Source of the DNA: a virus
Taxonomy: Duplodnaviria > Caudoviricetes
IMG/VR virus record: IMGVR_UViG_3300028586_000752
Coordinates: 1 to 54,957 of that record
DNA: 54,957 nt
Strand: one strand, 5' to 3'
A model generated the notes under the pieces. That model did no database searches. It was not told where the DNA came from and saw only the letters and a program-made list of their open reading frames with translations. This document shows positions 1 through 47,193 of this stretch, piece after piece (position 1 is the first letter of the stretch; every line of letters begins with the position of its first letter). The position numbers and the translations under genes were made by a program.

Positions 1-1557
1 GTGAAGATCGAACTGAGCATGCCGCTCATCAAGGCCCTCAAGCTGGGGCAAAAACCGGTCGCAATCGATGCGGCAGGGAAGCTGGTGTTTGAGGCCGACC
101 CGACCAACGCCCCATACATCGTCTACGACGCGAGCCAGGATGCCCCGCCTGGCTTTGGCGTGAAGGTGGCCGGCAAGAAGACGTTCATTGTGCGCAGAAA
201 GGTCAACGGCAAGTCCGTGCAGCCGACGGTGGGCAACGTGGCCGACTTCATGCGAGCCAAGAGCCCGCTCACTGAAGCCCGCCAGGTGGCCGCCAAGTTG
301 GTCGAAGGCATCCTGTCCACTGGACGCAACCCCAACGTCGAGGCCCGCAAGGCCGTCGCCCTCATCCCTACGCTTGGCGAATTGTTCGCGCTGTATCGGG
401 AGCATGTCGCCACCCGAAAGCGCAAGCCGGCGAGCCAAGAAACGCTCCGCGTGTTTGATCGCAGCGTCCGCCGATTTGAGGCGCTGGGCTGGCTTAGACG
501 GAAAGTCGACGAGTTTGAGTCAGCGGAGATTCTCTCGGAATTCGAAAAGGCATCGAAAGAGGCTCCAGTCGCCGCCGAACAAACCTTCCGTCTGGCGATC
601 TCCGCATTGAACTGGAAGATGCGAAACGAGCAGCTTGACGCGAGCGTGGCCGGTCGAGAAGTCGCCATCCGCGCTAACCCATTCATCACGCTCGCGGCGA
701 ATGGGCAGTTTCTCACCCGCGAAGAGAGGGAGCTGCATTATCAAAAGAGTTCCGTGAGGAACCCTCTGACGCCATCAAAATCGCTTGGGGAATTTCTCGA
801 AGTGGCTTGGGCGAAACGATCGACGAATGACAACGCGACCGGCGTCGATTATCTGATCGCGATGCTGCTTTGGGGTTGCCGCAAATCGGAGCACGCTCAA
901 TGCGTATGGCGGGAATTTGTCCCGGCCGGCAAAGAGAAGGAGATGAGCTACGTCGATTTGAGCGACGATCCGATGTGGGGGCCTAGCGTCTATTTCCACA
1001 AAACGAAAAACACAAGGGCCCATCGCCTTCCGCTTACTCCATTTGCGGCGGAGCTCATGCGTCAACGCCAGCGGAGCTCGGCGGAGGAATCATCGATCCG
1101 CGGCTTCGGATTGAAATCCCGCCATTTCGTTTTCCCTGCGCGCTCTAAACAATCGAAGACTGGGCATTATTCTGATTCGACGGATCTTCGTGGCGCGATC
1201 ATCGACGAGGCCGGCATTCACAAGCTGACCAACCACGATTTACGGCGGTCTTTTGGCGCGATCATGACGACTCTTTGCGCGCCCGAGCCAATCAAGAAAT
1301 CCTTCTTCAACCACTCCGCGTCCAACATCACTGAGATTTATACGCCGCCCGAGTGGAATATGTTGCGGGAATGGATGTCGAAGATCGAGCAGAAGATCTT
1401 GATGACGGCCCCAAACGCTTACAATGCGTTGAAGCCCTCCGACTGGCCCCCACTGCCGGCGCCTGAGCCGCATGTGTGCCGCCCGCCAAAACCACGGACT
1501 GGCCGCCCGAAGAAGGCCAGCACGACCGCAGATGAAAGAGAGACCGAGGATGTTTGA
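1..1557 (+). CDS. int: Tyrosine recombinase/integrase with N-terminal arm-binding (DUF4102-like) domain
   Basis: Catalytic set WGCRKSE (R), KTKN (K), HDLRRSF (HxxR), FNH, EIY (Y); N-terminal PGFGVKVAGKKTFIVRRK arm-binding motif. Confidence 0.93.
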   Translation: MKIELSMPLIKALKLGQKPVAIDAAGKLVFEADPTNAPYIVYDASQDAPPGFGVKVAGKKTFIVRRKVNGKSVQPTVGNVADFMRAKSPLTEARQVAAKLVEGILSTGRNPNVEARKAVALIPTLGELFALYREHVATRKRKPASQETLRVFDRSVRRFEALGWLRRKVDEFESAEILSEFEKASKEAPVAAEQTFRLAISALNWKMRNEQLDASVAGREVAIRANPFITLAANGQFLTREERELHYQKSSVRNPLTPSKSLGEFLEVAWAKRSTNDNATGVDYLIAMLLWGCRKSEHAQCVWREFVPAGKEKEMSYVDLSDDPMWGPSVYFHKTKNTRAHRLPLTPFAAELMRQRQRSSAEESSIRGFGLKSRHFVFPARSKQSKTGHYSDSTDLRGAIIDEAGIHKLTNHDLRRSFGAIMTTLCAPEPIKKSFFNHSASNITEIYTPPEWNMLREWMSKIEQKILMTAPNAYNALKPSDWPPLPAPEPHVCRPPKPRTGRPKKASTTADERETEDV

Positions 1558-2143
1558 CGAGAAGACCTTCGCCCAGCTCGACGCCGCCGCCCGGCTCCAC
1601 ATGCTGCCCGACTCGATGATGTTGAGCAGCAAAGAGGCCGCGGCGTTCTTGCGGCTGTCTCTTCGCACACTGGAAGACCTCCGCCGCAGTGGGGATGGGC
1701 CGGCGTATGCCCAAGCCCCGGGCGGCTCGAACCGACCATGCCTGTATCAAAAGGGCGATCTGCTGGCATGGATCAGCAAGAACAAGATTGGCTCCGTGGC
1801 TGAGAACGCCACCCGCAATGGCATCGTCTTCGCTCTGGCCGGGCTGGTCGAGGAGTCCGCCTTCTGGGTAACCTCGTCGGGGTTGATCATGGGTGCCGTG
1901 GAGAGCACGCCCGTCGCCGACGTCCCGCGACTGCTTGCTGAATGCTCGATCGAATGGCTCCCGGCGATCGAAGCGGCCGCCACCGGGGATTGGATCGGGG
2001 CCGACGCGCATGAAGAGTTCGGCCGGCACGTGCAATCCAAGCTGAGTGATGCGGCGTCTGCGGTGCTGGCCGGTGTAGAGCGAACCGTGCTGGCAGAGAT
2101 CACGGCCGACGCCCCATCAGCGAGAGCAGCGCTCCGGGATTAA
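1550..2143 (+). CDS. AlpA/excisionase-like HTH protein with C-terminal extension
   Basis: LSSKEAAAFLRLSLRTLEDLRRSGDGPAY...YQKGDLLAWI is an HTH_17/Xis signature; ATG at 1550 overlaps the int stop. Confidence 0.8.
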   Translation: MFDEKTFAQLDAAARLHMLPDSMMLSSKEAAAFLRLSLRTLEDLRRSGDGPAYAQAPGGSNRPCLYQKGDLLAWISKNKIGSVAENATRNGIVFALAGLVEESAFWVTSSGLIMGAVESTPVADVPRLLAECSIEWLPAIEAAATGDWIGADAHEEFGRHVQSKLSDAASAVLAGVERTVLAEITADAPSARAALRD

Positions 2144-4446: not shown

Positions 4447-4871
4447 CAAAGCCTCCCTTTCTTTCCATGCGAGCCCGTCTCAATGCATGCGGTGCGCAAG
4501 GCTCGGGAGGCTTTACGAGCATCCCAAGCGCCTTGAACTTGCTTGGCTGTGCGGATGCGGGTGAGCCCATCGACTGATCGGACGAAGTCTGGATGATTTG
4601 GGTAACTCGACATCCCAACGCCACGGCCGGCAAACCACGAGGCAGAGCCGCACTCGGACCGAATCCATCGCCGAAATCTGGCAATCCTCCCAACTACGAT
4701 CTTGGAGGCACACTCGACCCACTCCCCATGCGAATGATCGATGTAGAACTGTTCGATATCCTCCCGCGTCATCAACCCCATCACGATATCCTCCCGCGTC
4801 ATCGACTCTATCACGATACCCTCCCGCGTCATCGACCCCATCCAGACACCCTCCCGCGTCATTGACCCCAT
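4446..4871 (-). CDS. GRL-tag array protein 8 with 4 N-terminal 10-aa repeats
   Basis: [10 protein letters not shown]-type repeats; ends QGAWDARKASRALRTACIETGSHGKKGRL; TGATG coupling at both ends. Confidence 0.75.
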   Translation of the reverse strand: MGSMTREGVWMGSMTREGIVIESMTREDIVMGLMTREDIEQFYIDHSHGEWVECASKIVVGRIARFRRWIRSECGSASWFAGRGVGMSSYPNHPDFVRSVDGLTRIRTAKQVQGAWDARKASRALRTACIETGSHGKKGRL

Positions 4872-4873
4872 CA
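4754..4873. repeat. Tandem repeat, 4 x 30 bp
   Basis: Units cgatatcctcccgcgtcatcaaccccatca, cgatatcctcccgcgtcatcgactctatca, cgataccctcccgcgtcatcgaccccatcc, agacaccctcccgcgtcattgaccccatca. Confidence 0.95.
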
Positions 4874-8307: not shown

Positions 8308-8658
8308 TTACGCCATTTCAGCCAGCTCCGCTTCCCAGTGTGCGTAACGTTCTTCATATTCTTCGTAGAGCTCGTCGACCAGGGCGGCGTCTTCAAGCTT
8401 GAAGAGCAACGCTCCGACGGCTTCCGCGAAGTCCTCCTCCTGCTTTTCCCAAAGATCGAACGTGCTGCCATCGTGATCATCAAACTCGAACAGCTCGTTT
8501 TCGAGATAGGCTTCGATCACCGCGGCGAACTCCTCGCGGCTGGCTTTGCGGCCGGAGAACTTGAAGGCGGACGCGCTCGAAAGTTGAAGGATCTCGATGC
8601 CCGCGTCGCTGTCGACGCCGAAGACGTATTCGCGGAGGGATTTTTCGGTGATGTTCAT
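8308..8658 (-). CDS. Small, highly acidic protein (DNA-mimic/anti-defence candidate)
   Basis: CAGGAG SD, ATG 8658; about 30 D/E versus about 9 K/R in 116 aa by manual count. Confidence 0.7.
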   Translation of the reverse strand: MNITEKSLREYVFGVDSDAGIEILQLSSASAFKFSGRKASREEFAAVIEAYLENELFEFDDHDGSTFDLWEKQEEDFAEAVGALLFKLEDAALVDELYEEYEERYAHWEAELAEMA

Positions 8659-8813
8659 GTGTGTCTCCTGGTGGTTTTGGTTGTCGTGCTCTCTCGGCAC
8701 GAATTCATCTTCTGACATTGCATCGGGCCGGGCAAGGCCACTGGTCGGGGATAAGCGGCAGGCGGGATGGGCGGCGCATTTCGACCGCTCGTCTTTTAAT
8801 GTGATTTTGCATC

Positions 8814-8841
8814 TTGCGTTCGCCATGGCGTTTGGTAACTT
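8814..8841 (+). promoter_or_regulatory. Sigma70-like promoter candidate
   Basis: TTGCGT-16 nt-TAACTT with TG extension; the spacer contains the palindrome CGCCATGGCG. Confidence 0.5.
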
Positions 8842-8888
8842 GGTTTCACCCGAAGAGAGCCGGCGACCAAAACCACCAGGAGACAACC

Positions 8889-17674: not shown

Positions 17675-17810
17675 TTAACAATCTCTAAGATCAAAAGCTT
17701 TAAAGATAAAACCTTAAGACTAAAAACAAAAACCGGGCGTGCCTGCAGGCGCACGTGGCGACGCGCCACGCCTGCGCCTGCGTGTGTGCGCTCAGGCGCA
17801 CACACGTAAT
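17675..17810. promoter_or_regulatory. Candidate oriT/origin: A-rich repeats plus two adjacent inverted repeats
   Basis: AAGA(T/C)..AAAA repeats ~17687-17732; IR1 17745-17781 (gcaggcgca-cgtggcg / cgccacg-cc-tgcgcctgc); IR2 17781-17806 (cgtgtgtgcgc-tcag-gcgcacacacg); upstream of mob. Confidence 0.5.
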
Positions 17811-17944
17811 AAGGAAAAACCAAAAACCGTGGGCTGCGAAAAACAAATGCACCATAGGAGAATCATGTGAACAGCGATGCCCTTACCGGGCCTCGCAGCG
17901 GCTTCGCCGGCAAACCTGAACACAGCGACCACCATCAAGCTCGA

Positions 17945-18025
17945 TGAAATCTTTCTGAAATCTCATGAAATATTTCACTTGGCTTCATGATGCTGCGCGG
18001 GGGTGAAATCTTTCGAAAGATTTCA
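17945..18025. repeat. TGAAAT-motif cluster including a perfect 22-bp palindrome
   Basis: tgaaatctttc-tgaaatctca-tgaaatatttca (17945-17977); tgaaatctttcgaaagatttca (18004-18025); inverted copy at 16588-16610. Confidence 0.8.
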
Positions 18026-45518: not shown

Positions 45519-46463
45519 ATGCTCCTCGACCTCTGGCTGTTCAGCACGTCGCCGCCTTTGGCCGGGTCGCTCGTCGTTTCGGAGGCGGATGACGTCGCGT
45601 TGGGTGGCGGGAGGGCCGTCGCTCGCGGCTCAATCGCAGCCGGGGATGCTTCCGACGGGATGGTAGGCGGCGGAAGCGCCCGCACCAGGGCGAGCGTATT
45701 GGGCTTTGTCGAACTGAGCGACGCCATGTCCGGGGCCGTGCGTGCGTGGGCCACGGCAAACGGTGGTCTTCGCGAGGGTTTCGACGTCTTAACCGCTGCC
45801 GGCTCATTGCGGTCGACCGGCTATCTTCTTGCCGCCGAATCGAGCGATGACGGGGCCATGGCCGGCTCCATGCGCCTTCAAGCCACGCTCCAAGCGATCG
45901 ATTCGCCGGACGATTTTGCAGCCTATGGCTTGCTTGGCGTTTCAGCTTTGGGCTTGCTTGCTGAGGCGGGGGATTGGCTGGCGGGAGCAGGAGCGCAGCC
46001 AAAAACCGGCGTCGGCGATTTTCAAGACAAAAGTGATGCTCTATTCGGTTCTAGCATAGTTTTTGCCACTGTAACGGCTACGTTAGTAGAAAAGATTGAC
46101 ACCATGGCTGGCGACGGGGCGGCTTTGGGTCGCGGGGCAGCCGGGTTTTCCGAGTCGGCCGATAGCATCAGCGCTGCCGGGTTTTCGCGCATCGGCTCCT
46201 CCGCCTCGCTGTTGGAGGCGGGCGACGTGGCGTGGATGGCGGGGCGGGTCATCCCGACGGCTGCGCCGCGCAGATTGATCTTTTCGATCGCCGCACCAGG
46301 GCGATTGGGGTTCCGGCTCGCGCATGAAGACCGGCGGCCTATGCTGGTCGGCGAGCTGGCCTTGGCGTCGATCTCCATCCGATTCGCGCAGCGCCGAAGG
46401 CCGGCGCTGACGATGGAGATGGCGCATGTTCGGGCGTTCGGCTTCAAGAACGCCTCCGCATAG
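45519..46463 (+). CDS. Repeat-containing fibre-like protein
   Basis: GGAGG SD; ~21-aa ExxDxxxGxG repeats like those in 31850-33838. Confidence 0.6.
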   Translation: MLLDLWLFSTSPPLAGSLVVSEADDVALGGGRAVARGSIAAGDASDGMVGGGSARTRASVLGFVELSDAMSGAVRAWATANGGLREGFDVLTAAGSLRSTGYLLAAESSDDGAMAGSMRLQATLQAIDSPDDFAAYGLLGVSALGLLAEAGDWLAGAGAQPKTGVGDFQDKSDALFGSSIVFATVTATLVEKIDTMAGDGAALGRGAAGFSESADSISAAGFSRIGSSASLLEAGDVAWMAGRVIPTAAPRRLIFSIAAPGRLGFRLAHEDRRPMLVGELALASISIRFAQRRRPALTMEMAHVRAFGFKNASA

Positions 46464-46518
46464 TGTCGTGCGGGTTTGCCGTTGCTCTTCGCCTTTGCCA
46501 TCGCCTTAAAGCGAGGGC

Positions 46519-47146
46519 GGAATGGGTCTCGGGGGATTTACCCAAAGACTTGAATTGCGTAGGGGGAGGGGTTCGAGGAATCCCCCGTAGTGATGTGCCC
46601 CGAAGGGGACAAGTCTGAAGGGCGCCAGACATAAAAGAAATTTTCGGATGAATCCCGTTGCCGGAGGCATGGCCCTAAGGCCAAGGGTTCTTACGAAAAT
46701 TCCCTTTTATGTTGAATCCCCCGAGAGCCATCCTATGCCGATTCTGACGTGCCCCGCGGAGTGAAAAATGGGGGGCCTGTTTTTTGCGCAGCGGGGATAG
46801 AGTGCCGCAGGACACGACCAGCCATTGATGGAAGCCCGTAGTAGAAATGGAGGGGGCCCGCTTGCGGGAGGATCTATTTTTTCGCAGGGCTTCCATCAAG
46901 GGGATCTTGGATCGCCATCGGACGAGACCAGCCGCGGAGCGGGCCCTTGGAGCGCCATAGGACGCGACCAGCCGCCAGGGGGCGGGCCGTTGACCCCAAA
47001 TGCTTTTCGCCGCGCGCCCGCCATCTTCCTTGCGCGGCCCTCTGCCTTTTGATTGAATGAGGATGCCGTCGGGCAATGCTTTGCCCGCCTTATTCACTGG
47101 ATGGCGCAAAGACGCCCTCCCGCTTATGAGCGCCGATGTCGCGCTC
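46519..47146 (+). ncRNA. Candidate large structured non-coding RNA (family not recognised)
   Basis: Nested helices 46522-46540/46713-46731, 46629-46646/46694-46712, 46825-46837/46887-46899 and 47054-47062/47088-47096; G-U pairs favour the + strand; three motif repeats. Confidence 0.6.
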
Positions 47147-47193
47147 CTGAATAACAACAAGAGCCCGACACCAGGGCCACAAAGGAAAGTGAC

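Follow-up and report, generated by a model that had tools for sequence, protein, structure and literature searches.

A Strongly Folding, Non-Coding Element Behind the Late Gene Block of a Provirus: a Candidate Structured RNA of the Late Transcript 3' End

Introduction

When a stretch of 215 nucleotides (nt) between two phage gene blocks can be folded into a closed and branched structure, does it encode an RNA, from which strand and of which kind, or is the fold a property of the DNA? This question is raised by positions 46519-46733 (hereafter, the element) of a single IMG/VR provirus record, IMGVR_UViG_3300028586_000752 (Duplodnaviria; Caudoviricetes), whose 54,957 nt were analyzed as a whole (the window) and whose completeness is estimated at 72%. 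The element lies in a gap of 730 nt between gene blocks (46464-47193): it starts 56 nt 3' of the stop codon of the gene at 45519-46463, and the next gene begins 460 nt further on. An original prediction, made from the sequence alone, had proposed here a novel phage non-coding RNA (ncRNA) domain, possibly part of one RNA of ~630 nt.

We tentatively read the element as a + strand, cis-acting structured RNA module at the 3' end of the late (virion/tail) transcript, which might affect the stability, processing or read-through of the messenger RNA (mRNA); we hold this reading to be somewhat short of probable. The element is non-coding. We infer that it is transcribed and that its + strand is the functional one, and the mechanism proposed below is conditional at every step.

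Fold and Statistical Strength

On the + strand, RNAfold assigns -98.8 kcal/mol to positions 46519-46733, and 200 dinucleotide shuffles of the same sequence average -71.9 +/- 4.6 kcal/mol (z -5.80; 0 of 200 as stable); this control, which the original prediction had put forward as a check, thus places the element beyond every shuffled sequence. Block shuffles keeping 4-, 6-, 8- and 10-mers intact still give z-scores of -6.4, -5.3, -4.8 and -4.6, with none of 150 sequences reaching the observed energy at any block size, so the fold is not explained by runs of G, C or A/T. Furthermore, when the whole window was scanned with RNALfold, the element (46522-46732, z -7.11) ranked second among the 140 + strand hits with z <= -4, and its region (46510-46757, z -6.71) took second place on the - strand as well. 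Folds of such strength occur at about five places in the window.

The predicted ensemble is well defined, the centroid being almost the same as the minimum free energy (MFE) structure, whose pairs have a mean probability of 0.85. Broadly, a long closing helix (P1) surrounds two domains, a three-way one on the left (46541-46622) and a long hairpin on the right (46628-46713), and the individual helices are collected in Table 1. Every helix drawn in the original prediction reappears in place in the RNAfold structure, including its closing helix (46522-46540/46713-46731), in which 18 of 19 positions pair, one of them as G-U, around a G-G mismatch at 46526/46727. Taken to its full length, P1 consists of 3+3+13 base pairs (bp) separated by two 1x1 mismatches, with pair probabilities of 0.79 for the outer 3-bp segment and 0.99-1.00 for the other two; as modeled, it would provide the ~two turns of near-continuous double-stranded RNA that mark an RNase III site. 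The G+C fraction of the element is 0.53, vs. ~0.60 for the phage.

Some freedom of pairing is built into this architecture. The 9-mer CGGGGGAUU (46530-46538) pairs with 46715-46723 in the MFE structure, or with an identical complement at 46579-46587, and the three occurrences of this word and its complement within the element permit alternative pairings. The 9-mer CGGGGGATT has four exact sites in the window, three of them inside the element and in both orientations, so the 5' strand of P1 may pair with a distal or with a proximal copy.

Coding Potential, Strand and Transcription Signals

Positions 46550-46850 carry no frame-specific signal in the G+C content of third codon positions (GC3), unlike the flanking genes, which bears out the earlier view that no convincing open reading frame (ORF) overlaps the element. 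A - strand ORF of 174 amino acids (aa) at 46675-47199, rich in Arg, Ser and Lys, matches no Pfam or PHROG family, and a search of 5.8 billion protein clusters gave it no homologue. Small ORFs in the helix arms were also discarded, as they have no ribosome-binding site and owe their symmetry to the repeat.

The strand had originally been chosen by the argument that the G-U pairs work only on the + strand, and this argument fails. Mirrored onto the - strand, the + fold loses five pairs and drops to -78.8 kcal/mol (20 kcal/mol worse), but when folded anew the - strand reaches -92.3 kcal/mol (z -6.36), with five G-U pairs of its own, albeit without the left three-way domain. It is the surroundings, and not the G-U pairs, that point to the + strand: both flanking genes lie on it, as do runs of six or more T (T6+) and a hairpin followed by a U tract. 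In the left domain, a 3x3 internal loop GUA/GUA would allow tandem G-A pairs on the + strand only.

As regards transcription start, a consensus scan of 46200-47400 on both strands found no sigma-70-like promoter, and the best -35/-10 pair that could be picked out by eye upstream (TTGCTC, 18 nt, TTAAAG) lacks key -10 positions. That no such promoter was found in the 56 nt ahead of the element agrees with its being co-transcribed with the upstream gene. Elsewhere in the window, a 200-aa protein encoded on the - strand (11096-11698) matches sigma-70 region 4 at the Pfam cut-off; it is possibly a sigma factor of the phage, in which case a sigma-70 scan may miss some phage promoters.

As regards transcription end, a terminator-like hairpin (46746-46785; stem 46746-46781) begins 13 nt past the element, the fold of 46734-46792 amounting to -19.7 kcal/mol; its stem is followed by a U run on the + strand and by none on the - strand. 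The + strand of the window has ten T6+ runs. Two are located directly 3' of the element, the first of them closing the terminator-like hairpin, and those at 9842, 17593 and 18418 have a G+C-rich inverted repeat just 5' of them and are read as canonical terminators. A second, longer hairpin (46816-46907) may be a bidirectional terminator. The two hairpins weaken the idea of a single ~630-nt RNA, and their modeled stems suggest a transcript end near 46785 or 46882, rather than a transcript spanning the entire gap. The gap also contains three direct repeats with a 20-nt core, GCCNNNGGACNNGACCAGCC, whose three exact matches in the window all fall here (starts at 46804, 46914 and 46954); allowing up to three mismatches, six matches are found in the window vs. 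2.7 expected. By eye, a hairpin can be made out 3' of every copy. These repeats (46800-46975) might serve to bind proteins or as promoters of the downstream block.

Search for Homologues and Known Families

At least six related prophage copies, with Massilia sp. NP310 and several metagenome contigs as their sources, are represented in public data. The gap had no blastn match in 50,697 phage records or 72,556 plasmids; locus searches among viral contigs with four neighboring or structural proteins, taken singly, returned no close relatives; and searches of genome contigs yielded no homologous locus. An alignment search with the A1-like protein encoded downstream retrieved seven viral and seven metagenome loci at 28-45% identity, which have only the A1-like gene in common, plus the endolysin gene in L009 and L003, with no synteny; none of the 14 shows similarity to the gap. 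A single-sequence covariance model of the element (R1), run over 239,898 bases (the window and the fetched loci), recovered nothing besides the element and the hairpin of its reverse strand, and thus no paralogue; it matched none of four related virus records searched whole, nor L032. A triple 8-mer DNA pattern run through viral contigs returned one unrelated repeat of low GC.

None of the 4227 families of Rfam 15 reaches its gathering score anywhere in the window, in agreement with the original prediction, which had assigned no known family and had named an Rfam search as a check. In E-value mode, the best overlapping match is the proV RNA motif RF03045, at 22.1 bits vs. a gathering score of 88.5, and the others are microRNA or viral models at 10-20 bits. 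The proV match is carried by one stretch of ~35 nt (GGCGCCAG..AAGAAAU.UUCGGAUG) aligned to an unpaired part of the model; it was rejected, as hairpins 1 and 3 would contain non-standard pairs and hairpin 2 would need an insertion of 57 nt. The same search also produces matches in 2 of 14 unrelated control genomes, and an exact-pattern scan of viral contigs for the proV-like stretch gave 0 matches. The main-text discussion of PMC5737381 does not take up the proV motif.

Transfer RNA and transfer-messenger RNA were likewise rejected: ARAGORN finds 0 genes in the window and 0 in 46400-47250 at default settings and with -ps, and at -ps80 makes one implausible 94-nt call in that region, outside the element. 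Regarding retron msr-msd RNA, a six-frame search of this 72%-complete record for reverse transcriptase (PF00078, E <= 1) found none, the same search having matched in 4 of 14 control genomes; the ends of the element do form an inverted repeat of the retron a1/a2 kind (P1, 18 of 19), a feature that is not specific to retrons. A spacer RNA of a diversity-generating retroelement was set aside on the same absence of PF00078 from the record. A miniature inverted-repeat transposable element (MITE) was rejected on copy number, flanks and ends. In the 2.66-Gb contig set of the source run, at >=80% likeness, coverage of 46440-46909 comes from the source contig (58,712 nt) alone; depth there is the 122.5 of the contig as a whole, and the contigs show neither variants nor a further copy. 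No direct repeat is common to the flanks (...GAGGGC / element / TATGCC...), as a target-site duplication would require, and the 14 loci retrieved when viral contigs were scanned with the terminal repeat have nothing but a 16-nt word in common with it, as by chance. Other candidates discarded were a hammerhead-like core (judged only by eye), type III antitoxin repeats beside a ToxN-like neighbor (no family match), and a T5-type injection-stop region, since this phage has an integrase and a terminase layout. No description of the element was found in the literature.

Prophage Setting and Other Features of the Window

The features of the element, of the gap and of the surrounding gene blocks are collected in Table 1.

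Table 1. Coordinates of the element, of its helices and of neighboring features (positions in the window).
Feature	Position	Strand	Remarks
Multi-branched fold (element)	46519-46733	+	13 helices, 77 bp (41 G-C, 31 A-U, 5 G-U)
Closing helix P1	46519-21/46731-33, 46523-25/46728-30, 46527-39/46714-26		Encloses both domains
P1 5' strand	46519-46539	+	Contains CGGGGGAUU at 46530-38
P1 3' strand	46714-46733	+	
Helix CCC/GGG	46541-43/46620-22		
Helix AGACUUG/CAAGUCU	46546-52/46610-16		
Helix AUUGC/GUGAU	46554-58/46590-94		
Helix GGGGGA/UCCCCC	46562-67/46581-86		
Helix CCCC/GGGG	46598-601/46605-08		
Helix GACAUAAAAG/CUUUUAUGUU	46628-37/46704-13		
Helix AAUUUUCG/CGAAAAUU	46639-46/46694-701		
Helix GAAUCC/GGGUUC	46650-55/46685-90		
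Further helices UGCC/GGCA and UGGCC/GGCCA			
Terminator-like hairpin	46746-46785	+	GACGUGCCCCGCG / UGGGGGGCCUGUU, then UUUU
Direct repeat (24 nt), copy 1	46800-46823	+	GAGYGCC...GGACNNGACCAGCC
Long hairpin	46816-46907	+	Apical CCCG-CUUG-CGGG; T6 run 46877-82 in 3' arm; E -43.3, z -4.61
Direct repeat, copy 2	46910-46933	+	With copy 3 makes 40-nt tandem units, 46901-46975
Direct repeat, copy 3	46950-46973	+	
Integrase	1-1557		Left start of record
Excisionase-like HTH_17 gene	1472-2143		After integrase
Block of mostly minus-strand ORFs	~10-18 kb		
Late block	from 19088 (small terminase) to gene 45519-46463	+	Small terminase, then large terminase, portal, major head, virion/tail proteins
Upstream gene	45519-46463	+	Final gene of virion/tail block; C-terminal 179 aa conserved in homologue cluster P0026
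Downstream coiled-coil protein gene	47194-47754	+	AGGAAAG ribosome-binding site; opens next block
HslV-like peptidase	47762-48298	+	Downstream block
T5 A1-like protein	48425-50110	+	Downstream block
GH19 endolysin	50590-51384	+	Downstream block

The last 179 residues of the upstream product are 64% identical to P0026, gap-free and with a common end point, and on this alignment the + strand gene is genuine; accordingly, a 159-aa - strand ORF that overlaps it is a shadow frame. As the match to this sole homologue is confined to the C-terminal 179 aa, the N-terminal half is possibly a module of its own or one that evolves fast. Within the same gene, an A+T-richer patch at 45900-46100 disrupts the GC3 signal.

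The A1-like protein is 89% identical to a protein of Massilia sp. NP310 (WP_219864840.1 / QYG03999.1) and has a 99.8% identical copy on a 511-kb metagenome contig; other close relatives in public data are 85-89% (P0020, P0021, P0023) and 70% identical (P0025 and P0003), and a further contig carries P0002 (84%). These matches place the element within an integrated prophage, whose host was probably a Massilia-like betaproteobacterium. Acidovorax phage AP1 has the nearest portal protein (46%), but in this part of the genome the two phages are not collinear. PADLOC, applied to the neighboring genes, found no relevant defense system. At the right end of the record, a helicase-like - strand ORF (52588-54957), with matches to ResIII and to type III restriction enzymes, extends past the last position.

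Some of the other strongly folding places in the window are worth describing on their own. The top + strand fold (8643-8901, RNALfold z -7.5) consists of two divergent 5' regions in inverted duplication, whose arms (8655-8686 vs. 8861-8892) are 88% complementary and each carry a GGAGAC ribosome-binding site and an ATG, and it has the look of a symmetric divergent switch region. In the intergenic stretch 9805-10028, a canonical terminator-like hairpin (9818-9848), read as bidirectional, adjoins a very stable long hairpin (9907-9997, z -7.0). Positions 51463-51710, within a small ORF right after the endolysin gene, are very stable on both strands (+ strand z -6.6, - strand z -7.85).

Several repeats were also recorded. 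The 12-nt palindrome TGAAATNTTTCR (16589-16600, 17945-18025) has seven matches, all of them flanking a - strand gene (16543-17823) with a weak Mob_Pre match, and none of 100 shuffles reaches this number; the matches look like operator or origin sites. Four 30-nt tandem repeats lie in a minus-strand ORF at 4724-4873, and five to six copies of CATCAAAGCCTCCCTT stand at the heads of minus-strand genes between 4443 and 10603, where, read in reverse complement, they are taken for a ribosome-binding site with its start codon.

Proposed Role and Rival Explanations

What stands of the proposed novel phage ncRNA domain is a statistically exceptional fold, non-coding, in an integrase-bearing provirus and with no Rfam family; a sigma-70-like promoter was not found, the argument by which the strand had been chosen fails, and no RNA run is listed among the public runs that contain the sequence. 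Under the tentative reading of a 3'-end module, transcription leaving the gene 45519-46463 would pass through the 215-nt fold, and the polymerase would then reach the hairpin and U tract located 13 nt on (46746-46785). The closing helix of ~19-21 bp, together with the compact branched domains, would block 3'-to-5' exonucleases and/or give an RNase III-type entry site. As an outcome, the stability of the late mRNA would be set and, together with the terminator(s), also the read-through into the downstream coiled-coil, peptidase, A1-like and endolysin block. A bolder and quite improbable reading would see in the element a P1-closed junction founding a new class of prophage RNA of ~210 nt, which would sense a metabolite, a protein or the RNA polymerase and would compete with the adjacent terminator, gating read-through from virion to A1-like and endolysin genes as a lysis timer.

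Several observations weigh against a 3'-end module. A fold of 77 bp and three domains is more elaborate than a simple exonuclease block requires. RNA of the - strand folds comparably well, and so do both strands with DNA parameters (z -6.73 and -6.25). The adjacent hairpin is atypical (bulges, a loop of 10 nt) and was not called by a consensus terminator scan. Homologous DNA of the element was not recovered in any collection searched, and the one public run that contains the stretch, a leaf-litter metagenome run that is the likely source sample, is a DNA run with assembled contigs. Lastly, the strongest fold of the window (8643-8901) is plainly a DNA-level one, so a high z-score is in itself no proof of RNA.

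Some of these observations would be expected if the element were a DNA-level feature, i.e., nested inverted repeats acting as folded single-stranded DNA or as protein-binding sites in replication, recombination or at a module boundary, or else a functionless relic of an inverted duplication. The equal folding of both strands under DNA parameters, the precedent of the inverted duplication at 8643-8901 and the concentration of three of the four exact CGGGGGATT sites in the element, in both orientations, all agree with such a feature; so do the crowding of the gap with three direct repeats and further inverted repeats and its character as a mosaic joint, the upstream protein being 64% identical in relatives vs. 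85-89% for the downstream A1-like protein. Nonetheless, 13 different helices nest without conflict in one branched structure, as happens when a single strand folds and unlike arrays of duplex sites, and CGGGGGATT with at most one mismatch is not enriched (14 found in the window vs. 18.4 expected). A tailed double-stranded DNA prophage is not known to need a folded single-strand signal here, which also counts against this possible, if unlikely, explanation. More unlikely still is a stand-alone phage ncRNA of ~210-270 nt, with one end at ~46519 and the other at the terminator close to 46785, which would arise from a non-sigma-70 promoter of its own or be excised at P1 from the late transcript, and would act in trans as a protein-binding, sponge or base-pairing RNA. 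Its compact, closed architecture, the well-defined ensemble and the terminator-like hairpin directly 3' suit it, and the sigma-70 region 4 protein makes phage promoters invisible to the scan possible; it is opposed by the missing sigma-70-like promoter and the poor pair found by eye, by the sole public run with the sequence being one of DNA, and by the lack of a paralogue in the window and of a homologue in the fetched loci.

The long P1 closing a multi-helix junction, with a hairpin and U tract 13 nt later, also resembles a riboswitch-like conditional terminator between operons, in which the junction would act as a sensor domain, a formed P1 would lead to termination and an open P1 would leave its 3' strand and the next bases to pair with the G-rich terminator arm, allowing read-through to the A1-like/lysis block. 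When the 5' strand of P1 is blocked in silico, 46725-46735 does pair with the G-rich UGGGGGGCC arm of the terminator hairpin, and the threefold CGGGGGAUU word and complement offers alternative pairings. The competing pairings depend, however, on low-information G5 and C5 runs, no sigma-70-like promoter was found upstream, there is no match to an Rfam riboswitch class, and the next gene is reached only beyond more structure and repeats; we regard this switch as doubtful. An RNA of the - strand, antisense to the flanking genes, is very improbable: it is backed by the stability of that strand (-92.3 kcal/mol and second place in its RNALfold scan), but no - strand gene is near, the ORFs 46022-46501 and 46675-47199 look like shadow frames and the + strand gene has a homologue, no - strand promoter was found in 46200-47400, stems beside T/A runs precede U runs on the + strand only, and the left three-way domain is lost. 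The least credible explanation, largely refuted, is the RNA of a mobile or retro-element, either a MITE with terminal inverted repeats of 19 bp or a retron msr-msd RNA. The 18 of 19 paired ends, an interior that is A+T-richer than the phage and a closed layout resembling that of retron ncRNA would fit, but the element is single-copy in the source metagenome, without target-site duplication and with terminal-repeat matches confined to a word, and no reverse transcriptase was matched in the 72%-complete record (PF00078, E <= 1).

Comparison With Known Systems

For the preferred reading, the nearest parallels are the RNase III sites of phage T7, the sib retroregulator of phage lambda and the repetitive extragenic palindromic (REP) hairpins, which are structured mRNA 3'-end or intercistronic elements for processing or stabilization, made up of single hairpins of ~40-80 nt. 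The element shares with them a same-strand, non-coding gap after the last gene of an operon, a near-perfect helix of ~19-21 bp, of RNase III size, and an adjacent terminator-like hairpin; it differs in its 215 nt, three domains and 13 helices, and is known here by its predicted fold. Terminating riboswitches are resembled in the P1-closed junction, in the hairpin and U tract that follow, and in a competing pairing, possible in silico, between the 3' side of P1 and the terminator arm, whereas the element shows no sigma-70-like promoter upstream, matches no riboswitch class and stands after a tail-gene block, and a single sequence defines no conserved core. The likeness to retron msr-msd RNA lies in an end-to-end closing helix, small 5' hairpins and a long 3' hairpin; in contrast to retrons, no reverse transcriptase was matched in the 72%-complete record and the downstream gene encodes a coiled-coil protein. 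With the proV RNA motif the element shares the ~35-nt stretch of its sub-threshold match, while the hairpins misalign.

Should the element prove to be a functional RNA, an uncatalogued member would be added to the small set of structured RNAs known from temperate phages of soil Betaproteobacteria, and the 3' end of the late operon would stand out as a site of elaborate phage RNA structure, possibly coupling virion and lysis expression; for now the element is an orphan candidate, albeit a well-documented one. The ROOL and GOLLD RNAs (PMC5737381; PMC12286853) are likewise phage-borne, intergenic and heavily structured, with no obvious function; the element is shorter (215 nt vs. ~580-800 nt), has no tRNA genes near it and matches no Rfam model. 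The element is without a known family and, if real, would be of a known kind, the structured phage RNA element.

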